A stretch of DNA of 37,891 bases from Candidatus Thorarchaeota archaeon (lineage in GTDB: Archaea > Asgardarchaeota > Thorarchaeia > Thorarchaeales > Thorarchaeaceae). The notes under the pieces were generated by a model, which saw only the letters and a list, made by a program, of their open reading frames with translations, made no database searches and was not told where the DNA came from. The stretch is from the NCBI GenBank assembly GCA_048884785.1, contig JBHLQM010000028.1, positions 1 to 37,891 of the forward strand, given 5' to 3'. The position numbers and the translations under genes were made by a program. Shown here one piece after another: positions 1 through 17,925 of this stretch (the stretch's first letter is position 1; every line of letters starts with the position of its first letter).

Positions 1-29
1 TCATACACGGCACTCGCGTCTGATTTCAT
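1..29 (-). CDS. 5' end of a gene running off the window (MKSDASAVY...), directly downstream of the bshA-like gene
   Basis: ATG at 29-27 on the minus strand, preceded by purine-rich GGAGAAAA, 10 nt after the bshA stop. Only 9 codons are visible. Confidence 0.5.
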
Positions 30-39
30 CTTTTTCTCC

Positions 40-1206
40 TCAGGACTTTTGAATTACTTCCTCAAACAGTTTCGCATATTTGGGTACAATCTTGTCTGCA
101 GAAAAGTGCTCCTCAACTCTCTTTCTTCCTGCAAAAGCATACTTCCTTCGAAGTGAGTCATCCTCTAGAAGATCTATTACGGCCTGAGCATATTCTTCCA
201 TTTCAAACCCCTTTGTCACCATCCCATCTTTTCCAGGTCGCACAAGTTCTGGTATCCCGCCAGCTGGAGTGGTCACAACAGGTAATCTACATGACATCGC
301 TTCCAACAGGACAAGAGGCATTCCTTCAAGTGTTGAATTCAATAGAAACATGTCCGCCGAACACATGATTTCCTGCATGTTGCTCTTGATCCCCAGCAAA
401 TGCACATTATTACAGAGGTCTAATGCCTCAATTTTTCTCTCAACCTCAATCCGCGTCGGACCATCGCCTGCAATGATAAGTCTGGCCTTTGGGAAGTGGT
501 CAACTACCACTCGCATAATCTCAACTAGCTCTACCACTCGTTTTACTTCTCTAAAATTCGAGGCATGAAGGAGGACTCTCTCGTCAGGATGGAGTTTCTG
601 TTCGCCATTCTCCTTTCTGAGTGAAACGCAACCACTTTCAACTGTAAGGCAGATTCCTTCAAGGTGTGAGAATTTCTCAATGTCTATGAAGTTTGGGATT
701 ACGTGTATCTCTCTCTCAATGCCAAGTTCTTCATGCGCCTTTCTTCTGAGAAAATCAGAAACTGCTGTTACACCATCGGCCCGCTCTACAGTATGCTGTA
801 CTACCGGTTTGTATGCTGGATCAAGTCCGAGAGTATGTACATCTGATCCGTGTAGTGTGACAACATAGGGAGTCTTGGTAATTTCTCTAGCCATATATGC
901 TGACATAGCATGCGGAATTGCATAATGAGAATGGATTAGATCAAGTTTCGATTCACGCACAGTCTTTACAATCTTAGAGGCAAGAGTCATTGTATATGGA
1001 GGACCCGTGTTTTTGAAGACCGGGTAATCGAAGGAATCCACTAGGTCAACATACACTCCCTGCGTTTGCTCCCACATGAGCGAAAATGGCCGCTGATATG
1101 TGATGAAGTGAATAATGTGTCCCATTCCCGCAAGATGCTGTCCTAGTCTGGTAGCAAGATACCCGGATCCACCAACTGATGGAAATAGATTCACACCTAT
1201 TCTCAC
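40..1206 (-). CDS. bshA: GT4 glycosyltransferase, BshA-like (N-acetyl-alpha-D-glucosaminyl L-malate synthase)
   Basis: Motifs FPSVGGSG..AT.LG, HSHYAIPHA, TLHGSD, HASNFREVKR, EGMPLVLLEAM match BshA. The likely start is GTG at 1206; the ORF extends to 1266. Confidence 0.82.
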   Translation of the reverse strand: MRIGVNLFPSVGGSGYLATRLGQHLAGMGHIIHFITYQRPFSLMWEQTQGVYVDLVDSFDYPVFKNTGPPYTMTLASKIVKTVRESKLDLIHSHYAIPHAMSAYMAREITKTPYVVTLHGSDVHTLGLDPAYKPVVQHTVERADGVTAVSDFLRRKAHEELGIEREIHVIPNFIDIEKFSHLEGICLTVESGCVSLRKENGEQKLHPDERVLLHASNFREVKRVVELVEIMRVVVDHFPKARLIIAGDGPTRIEVERKIEALDLCNNVHLLGIKSNMQEIMCSADMFLLNSTLEGMPLVLLEAMSCRLPVVTTPAGGIPELVRPGKDGMVTKGFEMEEYAQAVIDLLEDDSLRRKYAFAGRKRVEEHFSADKIVPKYAKLFEEVIQKS

Positions 1207-1314
1207 GCTATTCCGCCTAGATTGGTCGATATCATTTATCACCTTTAAGCCAAATGGTCTGTACAATTCGCAGTCTGCAAACCTTGATTAGATGGGGGTA
1301 TGGTATGCAGATGC

Positions 1315-1983
1315 ATGAAGAATTCGGACAGTCCATCAATTCTGGTTATTTGTGCCCATCCTGATGACGAATGTATTGGAGCCGGCGGCACAATAGCGGT
1401 GCATTCCTCGATGGGAATTCCAGTTGATGTTCAATGTCTGACGGCAAATCAAATCCGAAAAAAAGAGCTTGAGGCAGCCTGCAAAGAACTTGGAGTGAGG
1501 AAAGTCTATTCCAGTATCAGGGATGATTTTGCATTAGATATGTCACTCACCAAGGAGGTTGCGAACGTGATACTTGAGTCACGGCCAGCCATTATTATTA
1601 CACATTCCCCTGATGACTACAATCAAAATCATGTCATTTGTTGTCAGATTGTAGAACAAGCGGCAGAGTGGGCTTCTCATAAAACTGTCTATGAAAACGC
1701 TCATCGCGTTGAGCGCATCTACCATATGGAAATTAATACGCTCTTCTCTCATCCAAATGTGATGATGGATATCTCCGGTTCATATGACCGCGCTCTGAGT
1801 GCTCTTCTCAAGTATAAAACGCAGATAGCAAAATCTGATGGGTTTTACACTAAGCTATATGATGCAAGAACGCGCCTACGAGGGGTTCAAAGTTCATGCG
1901 GACGTGCTGAAGCGTTTACAGTAAAAGTGCCCTATCATGCAGGACCGTTCTATGAGAAAAACAGTGCAAAGAGCCTATTCTGA
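1315..1983 (+). CDS. PIG-L/LmbE family de-N-acetylase, BshB-like
   Basis: AHPDDE..GAGGT metal motif, R..E...AC..LG and C-terminal AEAF. Divergent from bshA. Start is 1315 or 1300. Confidence 0.8.
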   Translation: MKNSDSPSILVICAHPDDECIGAGGTIAVHSSMGIPVDVQCLTANQIRKKELEAACKELGVRKVYSSIRDDFALDMSLTKEVANVILESRPAIIITHSPDDYNQNHVICCQIVEQAAEWASHKTVYENAHRVERIYHMEINTLFSHPNVMMDISGSYDRALSALLKYKTQIAKSDGFYTKLYDARTRLRGVQSSCGRAEAFTVKVPYHAGPFYEKNSAKSLF

Positions 1984-2370
1984 AGTTCCCGTTGCACCAT
2001 CGGCCTTTGTTCGTCTTGCAGCAAGAAGGGCTTTCAACTCTCCCATCATACTCATTCCACCGCCTGCTGGCTTTGGAGAGGGGGCCTTTGCAACAGGCGC
2101 TGATGCCATCCCGGGAGCAGCATCTGCTGCAGCAGATGGTCCTACAGTGGCTCCAGAAGCTATTCGATTAGCAAGAGAGTCCATCCTGGATTCTAGTGCG
2201 CCTATCCTTGAGTCAAGATCTTCAATATTCTTTTCCAGGCTTCCAAAAGCGTCGATGAGCTTGCCAGTAATTATGCTTACAACCTCACCAAGTTGCCTCA
2301 GCTTTTCCTCGGTAGGGTCTTTGAGTGCCCACTCAAACTCTTCCATAATGAAATCTTCATCATCGCCCAT
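1975..2370 (-). CDS. Small coiled-coil protein with an acidic N-terminus, Ala/Pro linker and C-terminal VASP-FAB/WH2-like helix
   Basis: 131 aa. Regular 4-3 heptad L45/I49/L52/I56/L59/M63/L66/I70. C-terminal GGGMSMMGELKALLAARRTKA. Confidence 0.75.
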   Translation of the reverse strand: MGDDEDFIMEEFEWALKDPTEEKLRQLGEVVSIITGKLIDAFGSLEKNIEDLDSRIGALESRMDSLANRIASGATVGPSAAADAAPGMASAPVAKAPSPKPAGGGMSMMGELKALLAARRTKADGATGTSE

Positions 2371-2441: not shown

Positions 2442-3833
2442 TCATGAGATTGTCACGAGTGCCTGAACAACCTTTTGTGAGATTTCGAGAATTTCCCTCA
2501 CTCTTTCATCCGAGCTCGCTTCACAAGTTATTCTAATTACTGGTTCTGTTCCGGATGGGCGAACCAAAACCCAACCATCTGAGAGTGATATTCCCAATCC
2601 ATCCACAGTTATGACCTCTCTGACATCACTCATTGCTTTTGGCAATTCCTGCTCGAGTGATTTCATTACTTGATTTTTCTTGTCACTTGAAACAGGAATC
2701 TTTGTCTTAAGAAGTGGATATGTTGGGATTTCAGCAATGAGTTCCCCGAATGACCTGTTTGTCTTGGCCATCAGTTCAAGAACCTTACAAGCGGCTAAGA
2801 ATGGTTCAGGTGCTAGATGGAATTCGGGAAACAAGAAAACACCGCATGCTTCCCCCCCATGAACAGCTTTCAGTTCATTGAGTTTAATGGCTACCTGAAT
2901 ATCTCCAACTGGTGTTCTAATAGTATTGCCCCCTGCTTTCTTCACAACCTCATCGAGTACTTTTGAGCTATCCACGGTGGTCACAATTGTCTTTGAAGAG
3001 CCTGCTGTCAGGATCTCTTTTGCAAATAATGCGATTGTCCTATCTCCCCTCACAACCTCGCCGGTTTCAGAAACAAAAACCACTCTATCGGAATCACCAT
3101 CATGCGCGATACCAAGGTCTGCCGCTGTTTCTTTCACCATACTAATCAGATCGCCAAGCGTCGCTTCCTCGGGTTCGGATTTTCTTCCTGGAAAGTGACC
3201 ATCAAGTTGCCCGTTTATTGTAATCACCTTGCACCCAAGTCTCTGCATGAGATATGGCGTCAAGACACAAGCCGCTCCATTTCCGGGATCAACGACCACT
3301 TTGAAATTCTTGCCCTCTATGGCGGCTCTATCGCAATTCTCCAGAAGGGATTGAATATGCTTCTCCACCGCCGTTTCGAGGTGACTAACAGAACCAATCG
3401 CATCCCAGTTTGCAACTTGGAACTCTTCCGAGTAGAAAATTCTCTCAAGCTCTGCTTCCATCTCAGGTGTGTATCCCATTGAGTTGGAGTTCCAGAACTT
3501 AACACCTGTGTACTCTGGAGGATTATGTGAGGCAGTGACCATAACTCCTGCGGAGAATGGTGGCTCTGATGCCGCTACTGTGAACGCTAGAGTAGGTGTA
3601 GGGATGATACCTACATCAACAACATCTATTCCTGTTGATACAATCCCTGCGGTGAGTGCGTCTGACACCATGCGTCCAGTAGTTCTTGCATCCCGACCAA
3701 TTACAACTGTACCTTTCTTCAGATATGTGCCCAGAGTCTTCCCTAGCTTCAATGCCATGTCCAGATTGAATTCTGTGCCGTAGACCTTTCTCACTCCAGT
3801 AGTTCCAAAGAGTTTTCCTGCCATGATGCTCAC
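2442..3833 (-). CDS. glmM: Phosphoglucosamine mutase / phosphomannomutase (alpha-D-phosphohexomutase)
   Basis: LFGTTGVR, TASHNP phosphoserine loop, DGDSDR metal loop, GGEA, VRPSGTEP. Substrate specificity is uncertain. Confidence 0.85.
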   Translation of the reverse strand: MSIMAGKLFGTTGVRKVYGTEFNLDMALKLGKTLGTYLKKGTVVIGRDARTTGRMVSDALTAGIVSTGIDVVDVGIIPTPTLAFTVAASEPPFSAGVMVTASHNPPEYTGVKFWNSNSMGYTPEMEAELERIFYSEEFQVANWDAIGSVSHLETAVEKHIQSLLENCDRAAIEGKNFKVVVDPGNGAACVLTPYLMQRLGCKVITINGQLDGHFPGRKSEPEEATLGDLISMVKETAADLGIAHDGDSDRVVFVSETGEVVRGDRTIALFAKEILTAGSSKTIVTTVDSSKVLDEVVKKAGGNTIRTPVGDIQVAIKLNELKAVHGGEACGVFLFPEFHLAPEPFLAACKVLELMAKTNRSFGELIAEIPTYPLLKTKIPVSSDKKNQVMKSLEQELPKAMSDVREVITVDGLGISLSDGWVLVRPSGTEPVIRITCEASSDERVREILEISQKVVQALVTIS

Positions 3834-4724: not shown

Positions 4725-4830
4725 CAACTGAAATCTAAATCAAACGAAACCTTATTAGAGCCGTAGGACTTATCGCAGAATAAGATACCGAACCGCCTAC
4801 TGCGGTGAACCTTCGAAGGATGAAATGCAA

Positions 4831-5379
4831 ATGAGCAGCAGCTATGATTATCTCTTTAAGGTCGTCGTACTGGGAGAGGGCGCAGTAGGCAAGACAGCAG
4901 TCGTCACCCGATTCTCCCACGGTTTCTTTCGCACCGACTATAAGACGACAATTGGCAGCCAGTTTGCTGTGAAGAATATCGACGTTAGCACAAGCGCGGG
5001 TGACAGGGTTACTGTGAAGCTGCAGATTTGGGATGTGGCAGGACAGTCCCGATTTCAGATTCTGAGGCCAATGTACTACAGAGGTTCAAGTGGTGGCGTG
5101 CTTGTCTATGATGTAAGTCGAAGACGAACATTCATTGTACTTGAGGAATGGCTGGCTGAGCTTGAGAAAGCAGTCGGCAAGAAGATACCATTAGTGCTAG
5201 TAGCAAACAAGACCGATCTTCCTGACCGTGTGGTAGAGCCAGCTGAAGGGCGGGAGTTTGCAGATAGGCATGAGATGCCCTATATTGAGTCATCTGCAAA
5301 GACTGGTGAGGGCATTGTGGATATATTTGATCGACTTGGAAGAACCCTTGTGGAAAAGCGTGCTTCAAGTGATGAATGA
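4831..5379 (+). CDS. Rab-like small GTPase (Ras superfamily, eukaryotic signature protein)
   Basis: YDYLFKVVVLGEGAVGKT (G1), TIG (G2), WDVAGQ (G3), NKTD (G4), SSAK (G5), plus RabF-like IGSQF, KLQIW, RFQIL, YYRGS and LVYDV. No C-terminal Cys. Confidence 0.93.
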   Translation: MSSSYDYLFKVVVLGEGAVGKTAVVTRFSHGFFRTDYKTTIGSQFAVKNIDVSTSAGDRVTVKLQIWDVAGQSRFQILRPMYYRGSSGGVLVYDVSRRRTFIVLEEWLAELEKAVGKKIPLVLVANKTDLPDRVVEPAEGREFADRHEMPYIESSAKTGEGIVDIFDRLGRTLVEKRASSDE

Positions 5380-15263: not shown

Positions 15264-16835
15264 GTGGGTCTTGTGAAGATCGTTGAGTGTGTACCCAACT
15301 TCTCAGTAGGTCGTGATAAGAAGCTCATAGATGCACTTGCTGATACAATCAGAGGCATTGAAGGAGTTCGACTTCTTGATGTTGAATTCGATCCCGATCA
15401 TAATAGGTCTGTTTTCACCTTTATTGGCGAGCCGCAAAAAGTAAAACAGGCCGCTTTGAAAGCCGCAGAGCTTGCTGTTGAAAAGATTGACTTGACGAAA
15501 CACGAAGGCGAACACCCAAGAATGGGTGCTGCTGATGTTGTTCCATTCATTCCTCTCCATGGAACTACAATAGGCGAATGCATCGAACTCTCAAAGGAAT
15601 TTGCTGAGGAGTTCTCTCAGAAATGCAATGTCCCTGTATTTCTATACGCGAAATCGGCGACGCGTCCTGAAAGAACAGATCTACCCAATATTCGGGAAGG
15701 TGAATTTGAAGGACTACGTGAGCTAATTGGAAAAGACCCTGCAAAAGACCCAGACTATGGTCCGAAGAAGATACATCCAACTGCAGGAGCCACCGCAACA
15801 GGCGCTCGCAACTTTCTCATAGCAATCAACTTCAATCTAAGCACAGAGGATGTTAAAGTAGCTAAGATATGTGCTGACGCGGTCCGCGGTACAACTGGCG
15901 GGTTTGCCAATGTCCAAGGAATCGGTCTCCACCTTCCTGATAAGAAATGTGCGCAGGTCTCACTCAACTTGACTCATCCAAAGAAGACAAAGATTCACCA
16001 AGTATTAGAGGTCGTAAGAAATGAGGCTAGGAGATTTGGTGCCACAGTCATTGAAACAGAGATTGTTGGAATGGTGCCGCTTTTCGCATTACTTGATGCA
16101 CTCAAGTACTATCTCCAACCCGAAAAGCTAGATGAAAGTATGATTCTTGATCTCTACTATTTAGGAGAAGGGTCCGATCCCACCAAGAAGACCTTCAGAG
16201 AGATGTCTGTGTTTGAATTTGGCAATGAGATTAGGAAGGCAAGAGCCACTCCCGGTGGGGGTAGTGTTGCCGCTGCAATGGGTTCCTATGGAGCGGCACT
16301 TGTGTGTATGGTAACAGGTCTCTCGATATCCGGTCGTAAGTTTGCTGCGATTAAAGAAGAGATGCTTGAGCATCGCCATGCCTGCGAAACCGACCGCGGA
16401 ATACTCATGGATTTGATTGAACGTGATTCTGCAGCTTTTGATGATGTTATGGCCCTCTTCAAGATGCCTGAAGAAACCGATGCTGAAAAGAAGGCGAAGG
16501 AGAAAGCAATCGAGGAGGCTACCATAAAGGCTGCTACAGTCCCCTTGGAAACCATGCGTCACTCGTTAAACTCGATGACACATGCCAAAGCGGCAGCAAG
16601 TAAAGGAAATATCAACACGATTACAGATGCAGGAGTTGCAACACATGCACTAATGGCAGCGATTGACGGAGCTGCACTCAATGTAAGAGTAAATCTGGGC
16701 AACATAAAATCCAAGGACTTTGTTGAAAAGACCGGTAAAGAAATCGAAAAGATTCTGAACGATGGAAGGCACCTCAAGCAGGAGATACTTGAGATCGTTG
16801 AAGCCAGAATGAAAGAGCTATCAGAAGGGAAGTGA
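15264..16835 (+). CDS. ftcD: Bifunctional glutamate formiminotransferase / formimino-THF cyclodeaminase
   Basis: ECVPNFS.GR, DHNRSV.T, HPRMGA.DV.PF, plus C-terminal cyclodeaminase motifs TPGGGSVAA and A.LNV..NL. Confidence 0.94.
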   Translation: MGLVKIVECVPNFSVGRDKKLIDALADTIRGIEGVRLLDVEFDPDHNRSVFTFIGEPQKVKQAALKAAELAVEKIDLTKHEGEHPRMGAADVVPFIPLHGTTIGECIELSKEFAEEFSQKCNVPVFLYAKSATRPERTDLPNIREGEFEGLRELIGKDPAKDPDYGPKKIHPTAGATATGARNFLIAINFNLSTEDVKVAKICADAVRGTTGGFANVQGIGLHLPDKKCAQVSLNLTHPKKTKIHQVLEVVRNEARRFGATVIETEIVGMVPLFALLDALKYYLQPEKLDESMILDLYYLGEGSDPTKKTFREMSVFEFGNEIRKARATPGGGSVAAAMGSYGAALVCMVTGLSISGRKFAAIKEEMLEHRHACETDRGILMDLIERDSAAFDDVMALFKMPEETDAEKKAKEKAIEEATIKAATVPLETMRHSLNSMTHAKAAASKGNINTITDAGVATHALMAAIDGAALNVRVNLGNIKSKDFVEKTGKEIEKILNDGRHLKQEILEIVEARMKELSEGK

Positions 16836-16836
16836 A

Positions 16837-17925
16837 TCATTCCCTCAAGATGGTCAGGGATGCGCCCTTCCCAATCTCAATAGAATACGGCACACCTTCC
16901 GAATCTCTAATTGCCTGTAAAACGTGCTGCTCTTGTCCTGGTGCATACGCGAGCATGGTCCCACCGCCACCACTTCCGTTTATCTTACATCCCAAGGCAC
17001 CAGCTTCAATAGCAGTCTTAATCATCTTCTCGATCTTTGGGGTCGAACGATGTAGCTCATCTCTCAGAATCTCATGATGTTCGTTAAGAAGTGCTCCGAT
17101 TTCCTGTTCATCAGGATTCCTCTTCCGAAGAAGTTCAAATGCCCTCGAAGTTAAATCGCGATTCCGCAACGCTCCCTGAGCCATAAGTGCGGATTGAGTA
17201 GCTCTTGGTCTTAGAACATCGGAAACAGAATCAAAAGAAGTTGCTCTGCGGTCAAAATCGGGTAGTCGACTCTCAATCATCCTGAAGCCTGTTTCAATGG
17301 ATTTTCTAATCTCCCTCAGATCTCCAACTGTGTCCTGTTTCTTTTGGCAGGAATCTCCAATGATAAGTCCTTCAAGTACTGCTGGTAATTGAGTGACTCT
17401 CTGCTCAGAAGTCATTGTCACATGGATGATTCCCCCAAAGGATGATGCAAAATGATCCATCATTCCACCACTCTCCCCGAATCTTGACACTTCTGTTTCA
17501 TACGCATACCGAGCAAGATCCAGACGATTGAACTCATGTCCTGCTATATGGGTGGCAGCTACAACAGAAGCTACGGAGAGAGCTGAGGAAGAAGAGAGAC
17601 CCGCTGCAAGTGGGATATTTCCTGAAACACGAAAATCCCATCCATGACTAGGAATATAGTTCAGGTCTCGAACCACGTTGAAGGCACTTCTCAAATAGTC
17701 TCTCTTATGCCTAGGTGTCAGTAAGGTGTTTAGCGAGAATTCGTCTCTATCGCCTATATCCATGTAATTAATACATATCAAATCGTCATCCCGAGGATTG
17801 GCAATAATCTCTATGTTCAGATTGATTGCAGCCGGGAGAACATCAAGGCCCAGATAATCGCTGTGTTCACCAAAGAGACAGACTCTACCAGGTGCTTGAA
17901 CCCTGAACGGTCTGCTAATTGCCAA
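16837..17925 (-). CDS. galK: GHMP sugar kinase, galactokinase-like
   Basis: PGRVCLFGEHSDY, PLAAGLSSSSA, GGMMDH, GSGGGG. Confidence 0.8.
   Translation of the reverse strand: MAISRPFRVQAPGRVCLFGEHSDYLGLDVLPAAINLNIEIIANPRDDDLICINYMDIGDRDEFSLNTLLTPRHKRDYLRSAFNVVRDLNYIPSHGWDFRVSGNIPLAAGLSSSSALSVASVVAATHIAGHEFNRLDLARYAYETEVSRFGESGGMMDHFASSFGGIIHVTMTSEQRVTQLPAVLEGLIIGDSCQKKQDTVGDLREIRKSIETGFRMIESRLPDFDRRATSFDSVSDVLRPRATQSALMAQGALRNRDLTSRAFELLRKRNPDEQEIGALLNEHHEILRDELHRSTPKIEKMIKTAIEAGALGCKINGSGGGGTMLAYAPGQEQHVLQAIRDSEGVPYSIEIGKGASLTILRE

Follow-up and report, generated by a model that had tools for sequence, protein, structure and literature searches.

Does an archaeon of the Asgard group make bacillithiol, the low-molecular-weight thiol of some bacteria? 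The question is raised by the left end of contig JBHLQM010000028.1 (assembly GCA_048884785.1) of a Candidatus Thorarchaeota archaeon; the whole stretch analysed, 37,891 nucleotides in length, is referred to here as the window. A first-pass annotation had noticed at this end a glycosyltransferase gene resembling bshA and a deacetylase gene resembling bshB, and had proposed that the host, taken to be an archaeon, may make bacillithiol or an analogue. We find that the locus is the left part of a conserved Thorarchaeal gene cluster, which consists of a glmM copy, a small open reading frame (ORF), a bshB-like gene and a divergent bshA followed by a bshC-like gene, and we estimate at about 0.6 the probability that the product of this cluster is bacillithiol (Cys-GlcN-malate, where GlcN is glucosamine) or a very close thiol. 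The proposal of an archaeal bacillithiol or analogue is thereby supported by all three types of biosynthetic gene, from which the product is predicted.

In bacteria, bacillithiol is made by the enzymes BshA, BshB1/B2 and BshC, a pathway present in Bacillus subtilis, B. anthracis and Staphylococcus aureus and also in Deinococcus, Chlorobiota and Bacteroidota. The Asgard archaea are the closest prokaryotic relatives of eukaryotes. The standing of the pathway in archaea is unsettled in the literature because a review of 2020 and a survey of 2025 disagree. In 2020 Rawat and Maupin-Furlow counted 39 InterPro hits in archaea for BshA and as many for BshC, most of them from Asgard genomes, and suggested in their section 13 that archaea may make bacillithiol, bacillithiol itself being undetected in archaea (PMC7278568), while the 2025 survey of RefSeq concluded that the pathway is missing from all archaea (PMC12719100). 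The review gives InterPro counts only; a deacetylase, the order of the genes, motif changes and the divergence of the archaeal branch are not among its subjects. Names given by the Prokaryotic Genome Annotation Pipeline (PGAP) in GenBank to the homologues nearest to the window's genes, in metagenome-assembled genomes of Thorarchaeota, include 'BshA' and 'bacillithiol biosynthesis BshC'. The basic idea of archaeal bacillithiol genes is already published and is present in database annotation; we found no earlier description of how all three enzymes have diverged, and beyond the two papers named above no paper in the collection searched links bacillithiol in substance with Thor or Heimdall archaea.

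The glycosyltransferase

The source genome (3.6 Mb in 158 contigs, 91% complete, with an estimated contamination of 5.4%) contains the window as its contig C28, beginning at base 1. The glycosyltransferase gene next to the contig end encodes a protein that matches the curated BshA equivalog model TIGR03999 with 371.7 bits against a cut-off of 273.7, over model positions 2-374 of 375. A search of the whole genome with this model gives the same above-cut-off BshA, and the next-best models for the window protein all fall far under their own cut-offs. The architecture is that of a two-domain enzyme of the GT-B fold and glycosyltransferase family 4 (GT4), with the Pfam domains Glyco_transf_4 and Glycos_transf_1, and the best solved relatives are four BshA structures, among them that of B. 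subtilis BshA (PDB 5d00, E 2.4e-74). As a reference for conservation we took 116 non-Asgard representatives of the family, in which 62 columns reach a conservation of 85% or more; the window protein keeps 53 of these columns, including GGSG, HxHYAxPHA, TLHG(S/T)D, SNFRxxK (with the lysine K222) and both Glu of the EX7E motif (E294 and E302), and R219 is kept too.

In trees built with FastTree and IQ-TREE, for which GT4 paralogues from the same genome served as outgroup, the window protein falls inside the BshA family rather than among other GT4 enzymes. There it groups with BshA from five further Asgard families in a single clade (Shimodaira-Hasegawa-like approximate likelihood ratio test, SH-aLRT, 97), referred to below as archaeal-type BshA. 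The nearest homologues are 75-84% identical and every one of them is named as Thorarchaeota or another Asgard archaeon. Both the description of this protein as strongly BshA-like and the assignment of the host to the archaea are therefore upheld.

The cut gene and the BshC-like protein

The gene that starts directly after bshA and runs off the window was proposed by the first-pass annotation to be bshC. A search of the source genome with the curated BshC model, TIGR03998, gave no match, because an assembly gap splits the gene, and this null result is not evidence of absence. Each of 24 genomes examined from the same family has an ORF of 566-601 residues which aligns with most of the BshC model, at E values down to 1e-24. 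In a relative of the same genus (G004), bshA is followed, with an overlap of 4 nt, by a 574-residue BshC-like ORF (L013 1318-3042; 571 residues as a gene) which passes the cut-off of PF10079 (Rossmann-like_BshC), the model of the N-terminal domain, with 62.2 bits against 27. The few residues left in the window agree with this family, in that the spacing between the start Met and the V-Y of MKSDASAVY is that of the BshC-like consensus.

The other end of the gene was found on a second contig of the source genome, C68, at whose end (16800-16928, minus strand) the final 44 residues of a BshC-like protein are encoded, 72% identical to those of G004. The aminotransferase gene convergent with this fragment is 80% identical to the one that adjoins bshC in G004. 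The orientation of both fragments and the synteny fit a single gene that runs across an assembly gap between the end of C68 (plus strand) and the start of C28 (plus strand), with about 1.55 kb of the bshC-like gene in the gap. The genome thus holds both ends of a bshC-like gene, and the cut gene at the window's edge is very probably of the BshC type, as had been suspected. The other public assembly of this organism likewise breaks at the 3' end of bshA; two assemblies break within or just before the bshC-like gene, and some feature of this 1.5-kb stretch, perhaps strain variation or a repeat, resists assembly.

A phmmer search of PDB with a single BshC-like protein gave no match, and a profile of 31 Asgard BshC-like sequences matched only B. 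subtilis BshC (4wbd, E 1.1e-8). An AlphaFold2 (AF2) model of the same-genus protein was obtained with a predicted local distance difference test score (pLDDT) of 88.2 and a predicted template-modelling score (pTM) of 0.89. Its best match by Foldseek is again 4wbd (E 1e-17, template-modelling (TM) scores 0.57/0.60), and VIA-align superposes the two with Z 29.3 and a root-mean-square deviation (rmsd) of 4.2 over 471 residues. As modelled, the protein has the BshC fold. It is about 16% identical to B. subtilis BshC and some 30 residues longer, and it shares with that enzyme the motifs Q-x5-GGP-x5-K and GPGE-x2-Y.

The 31 Asgard proteins of the profile differ from the Bacillus enzyme in a set of four invariant Cys (C314, C319, C341 and C344). 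The model places them at the knuckles of a beta-hairpin subdomain, and the B. subtilis stretch aligned to it is without Cys. Among the Asgard families, which we number f1, f5, f9 and so on, f1, f12 and f14 have this Cys4 set complete, f5, f18 and f26 have lost part of it, and f27, whose BshC is of the bacterial type, has none of it. Because the set is incomplete or absent in some families, a structural role as a zinc site is more likely for it than a catalytic one.

After 4wbd, the model is closest in structure to class I lysyl-tRNA synthetase (LysRS; PDB 1irx, Z 20.0, 303 residues, rmsd 3.3), and other class I synthetases reach at most 12.6. Unlike LysRS, the BshC-like protein is without the anticodon-binding part and has the C-terminal helical region of BshC. 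The likeness is a structural one only, since hhalign gave no signal (probability 0.2) between the BshC-like profile and the source genome's own class I LysRS. That synthetase (G000 C3:97305-98930, minus strand; L028 1027-2652, where G000 is the source genome) bears a CxxCG knuckle and further Cys in its insertion (C195, C198, C220 and C233). Homology of the Cys4 set to the CxxC element of class I LysRS could not be shown.

The PIG-L deacetylase

The product of the divergent gene had been described as PIG-L/BshB-like. Its membership of the PIG-L family is clear from PF02585 (74.6 bits), while the BshB part of the description is weaker: the best solved relatives are the BshB enzymes 2ixd and 6p2t, but the scores against the curated BshB models, given below, are low. 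No better BshB candidate was found elsewhere in the source genome. When aligned to 2ixd, the protein keeps the zinc ligands as H20, D23 and H111, which in the Bacillus enzyme are His12, Asp15 and His113 (PMC5790435).

Distribution and origin of the trio

The distribution of the three genes was determined in a sample of 201 Asgard genomes. BshA was counted when over its cut-off, BshC when its N-terminal domain was over the cut-off of PF10079, and the deacetylase when it was an orthologue of the window's PIG-L protein. The trio is concentrated in a few families (BshA, BshC domain and PIG-L, respectively: f1, 40/43, 39/43 and 42/43; f5, 20/21, 21/21 and 21/21; f12, 16/19, 17/19 and 17/19; f14, 7/7 for each; f25, 1/1 for each; f26, 2/2 for each). 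The 40 genomes of f9 yielded none of the three genes, and the remaining Asgard families have isolated matches only; PF10079 is over its cut-off in 92 of the 201 genomes. The three genes are neighbours in most genomes of f1, f5, f12, f14, f25 and f26. The Thorarchaeal order, PIG-L and then divergent bshA and bshC, is conserved in about 40 Thorarchaeal genomes, and in f5 and f12 bshA and bshC adjoin each other in convergent orientation.

Family f27 has instead a compact bshC-bshB-bshA operon of the bacterial type (L021, G137:C20:28000-32000), whose BshC scores 280 bits with PF10079 and is without Cys4, and whose other two enzymes carry the motifs ESFG and HPDH. The f27 BshA nests among bacterial representatives, apart from the archaeal-type clade, and the operon was acquired independently and probably more recently.

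The f27 operon and the estimated contamination of the bin would both be in keeping with an origin of the window's trio by bacterial contamination or by very recent transfer from a bacterium. The closest homologues of all three genes are, however, Asgard; the cluster lies on a 37.9-kb contig that also bears a small GTPase gene (Arf/Ras/Roc); the gene order recurs in the many Thorarchaeal genomes mentioned; and archaeal-type BshA is a clade of its own. On the grounds of homologues, contig context and separate clade we rejected this explanation, which we regard as exceedingly improbable. The trio is an archaeal-type branch common to several Asgard families and not a recent bacterial import.

Locus layout and proposed precursor supply

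The features at the left end of the window are collected in Table 1. The divergent pairing of the bshA-like and PIG-L genes, and the gene that follows bshA and is cut by the contig end, are arranged as the first-pass annotation had described them. The glmM-like gene that it had placed just beyond bshB is a true glmM by its score, and its position was nearly right, one small ORF standing between the two.

Table 1. Features at the left end of the window, with coordinates in nucleotides
Feature	Position	Strand	Remarks
bshC-like gene, start	1..29	-	ATG 29-27, 10 nt after bshA stop; MKSDASAVY; 9-10 codons, cut by contig end
bshA (GT4, 388 aa)	40..1206	-	GTG 1206 likely start; open frame up to TTG 1266
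bshA/deacetylase intergenic region, divergent	1207..1314	.	108 nt; A/T-rich TTTAT and TTTAA boxes
bshB-like gene, PIG-L/LmbE zinc deacetylase (222 aa)	1315..1983	+	ATG 1315 likely start; alternative ATG 1300
ORF, 131 aa, acidic/coiled-coil	1975..2370	-	weak DUF7310 match below cut-off; gene call in other assembly
glmM, archaeal type	2442..3833	-	TIGR03990, 536 bits vs cut-off 439
Small GTPase gene	4825-5379	+	Arf/Ras/Roc Pfam families in other assembly's annotation

The GTG start of bshA agrees with its relatives and with the gene call of the other assembly. From its sequence, the intergenic region is presumed to be a shared promoter region for bshA and the deacetylase gene. Whether the 131-residue ORF belongs to the cluster is uncertain; its product is Ala/Pro-rich, and its stop overlaps the final 9 nt of the deacetylase gene. 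The small GTPase gene supports the archaeal origin of the contig.

A glmM copy adjoins the deacetylase gene in five of five Thorarchaeal genomes checked, the copy in one of them (G011) being partial and under the cut-off, and each of the five has at least one further GlmM match elsewhere. In the source genome three GlmM-equivalog matches are over the cut-off (C113:271-1596, C20:33177-34502 and C28:2472-3815). The cluster-linked GlmM is an extra copy that probably supplies glucosamine-1-phosphate (GlcN-1-P) for UDP-N-acetylglucosamine (UDP-GlcNAc). It scores lowest of the three, and one of the three may reflect the bin's 5% contamination.

Candidate users of the thiol

The DinB/YfiT proteins include bacillithiol and mycothiol S-transferases (PMC5790435), and the source genome has 11 ORFs with DinB_2 domains as candidate thiol transferases. 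Their distribution is near that of the trio (f1 34/43, f5 20/21, f12 17/19, f14 7/7, and also f22 and f13), and no DinB_2 was found in f9 or f27. On contig C37 (30172-31740; L017 1480-2415 and 2536-3048, minus strand) a 170-residue DinB_2 gene stands directly upstream of a gene for a 311-residue flavoprotein resembling thioredoxin reductase (TrxR). The flavoprotein scores 245 bits against 343 with the TrxR equivalog and is the source genome's best, if weak, match to the YpdA/Bdr model; this pair could be a thiol transferase and a disulfide reductase for the predicted thiol. A gamma-glutamylcysteine ligase of the GCS2 type (GshA) was looked for in the source genome and was not found.

Discussion

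If the cluster makes bacillithiol or a close relative, the extra GlmM would feed GlcN-1-P into the synthesis of UDP-GlcNAc, and BshA, a member of its family by score and by tree, would move GlcNAc from UDP-GlcNAc onto L-malate. The PIG-L zinc deacetylase, to which fold, metal ligands and linkage point, would deacetylate the product to GlcN-malate, and the BshC-like protein, with its Rossmann fold like that of class I aminoacyl-tRNA synthetases and its place in the cluster, would add cysteine. The many DinB/YfiT-type transferases would use the resulting thiol in detoxification; a role as a buffer of redox state or metals is also possible, with recycling by an enzyme outside the bacterial Bdr/Brx set.

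Several results weigh against this reading. The deacetylase is far under both curated cut-offs (TIGR04001 for BshB1, 82.4 against 182.5 bits; TIGR04000 for BshB2, 62.4 against 195.25), and the same is true of the BshC-like protein of G004 with TIGR03998 (71.5 against 265.8); none of 41 related genomes passes the TIGR03998 cut-off. The bshC-like gene of the source genome is assembled only as two end fragments. The 201 genomes are related, and the counts from them are not independent events. In this 91%-complete genome the best match to the Bdr/YpdA model TIGR04018 has 80.5 bits against a cut-off of 339.9, and there is no match to YtxJ/BrxC (TIGR04019) or to BrxA/B (PF06491).

Motifs at or near substrate sites are changed as well. 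The H-P-D-H motif of the deacetylase, which contains the third zinc ligand, reads N-Q-N-H in the window protein, and N-x-N-H is found in five of five Thorarchaeal orthologues, in place of the H-x-(D/E)-H of the bacterial-type copies and of the other Asgard families; the first His of HPDH presumably has a catalytic role, as in MshB. In BshA, ESFG is present in 101 of 138 aligned sequences and is replaced by EGMP in the window protein and in every Thorarchaeal sequence examined, with only the Glu retained. The conserved Arg of PFRL, at position 42, is a Ser in the window protein and is lost in all archaeal-type BshA, and His54 is an Asp in the window protein and is lost in most of them; both residues are kept in f27. 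Both sit in the acceptor-side domain, in which the other N-domain motifs are kept. Finally, no measurement of a low-molecular-weight thiol is on record for an Asgard archaeon (PMC7278568).

These changes are also the evidence for a modified analogue of bacillithiol, made by the same logic with another hexosamine donor, for example UDP-N-acetylgalactosamine (UDP-GalNAc), and/or another hydroxy acid than L-malate. In S. aureus BshA, ESFG (280-283) hydrogen-bonds GlcNAc, and the choice of a different GT4 enzyme between galactose and glucose depends on the Gly/Pro position of the motif (PMC10361700). A lineage-fixed change at this site, limited as EG(M/A)P to f1 and f12, would fit such a shift in the donor, and the losses in the acceptor-side domain, the altered deacetylase motif and the low scores of the BshB-like and BshC-like proteins point the same way. 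On the other hand, BshA passes its equivalog cut-off and keeps the great part of the conserved columns, and sister Asgard families with orthologous BshC-like and PIG-L proteins (ESFG is kept in f5, f14 and f26, as in f27) retain both ESFG and H-x-(D/E)-H; the partner enzymes therefore do not vary in step with the Thorarchaeal changes. We consider a modified analogue a serious, if less likely, alternative.

In a bolder form of the same idea, the thiol of Thorarchaeota would be an undescribed cysteine-hexosamine compound that differs from bacillithiol in its sugar or acid aglycone, as perhaps would that of every Asgard archaeon bearing the archaeal-type trio, and the LysRS-like BshC with its Cys4 set would perhaps be nearer to the ancestral form of this enzyme. 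The idea is put forward because ESFG has become EGMP, because no archaeal-type BshA has kept the acceptor-domain Arg and because the deacetylase motif reads NxNH, and we hold it only tentatively.

The trio might also make no low-molecular-weight thiol at all, but build another amino-sugar conjugate such as a solute, a cofactor or an envelope precursor, with a BshC-like protein that attaches something other than cysteine or is not a ligase. The distribution of the three genes over the Asgard families is nearly identical, as one pathway predicts, and the thiol-transferase-type DinB_2 genes follow nearly the same families; the BshC signature motifs are conserved, and to our knowledge there is no alternative pathway with exactly this trio. 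Against these points stand the low identity of the archaeal protein to B. subtilis BshC, its next-best structural match to a lysyl-tRNA synthetase, the missing recycling enzymes and the fact that the addition of cysteine by BshC, even by the bacterial enzyme, has yet to be reconstituted in vitro (PMC5790435). We judge a product other than a thiol to be quite unlikely, and bacillithiol or a very close thiol remains the preferred reading.

On this reading the Thorarchaeal cluster resembles the bacterial system in its three enzyme families, with a BshA that passes the curated equivalog, a deacetylase that keeps the PIG-L fold and zinc ligands, and a third protein with the predicted fold and signature motifs of BshC; in the linkage of bshA and bshB, as in B. 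subtilis; and in the presence of DinB/YfiT-type candidate thiol transferases in the genome. It differs from it in its archaeal host, in a BshB-like protein that is under cut-off and has NxNH for HPDH, in a BshA with EGMP for ESFG and without the conserved PFRL Arg, in the tandem order of bshA and bshC and the dedicated, linked GlmM copy, and in the absence of detectable Bdr (YpdA), BrxA/B and BrxC from the source genome.

The mycothiol pathway of Actinobacteria (MshA-MshB-MshC) follows the same chemical logic, that is, GlcNAc transfer by a GT4 enzyme, a PIG-L deacetylase and a cysteine ligase resembling class I aminoacyl-tRNA synthetases. Structures of MshC are weak fold matches to the BshC-like model (E about 0.1). 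A mycothiol reading of the locus was rejected on scores (MshA, 53.9 against 462.5 bits; MshB, 35 against 224).

Conclusions

A documented complete trio, including the deacetylase, settles the genomic side of a contradictory literature, and its conservation in Asgard archaea leads to a testable prediction of the mass of a thiol, 398 Da in the case of bacillithiol itself, for the few existing cultures and enrichments. The BshC reaction is the last open step of bacillithiol synthesis, for which the divergent, LysRS-like branch with its probable zinc site provides a second, independent enzyme for reconstitution. If the Cys4 BshC is indeed ancestral-like, it could help to find the activated-cysteine substrate of BshC.

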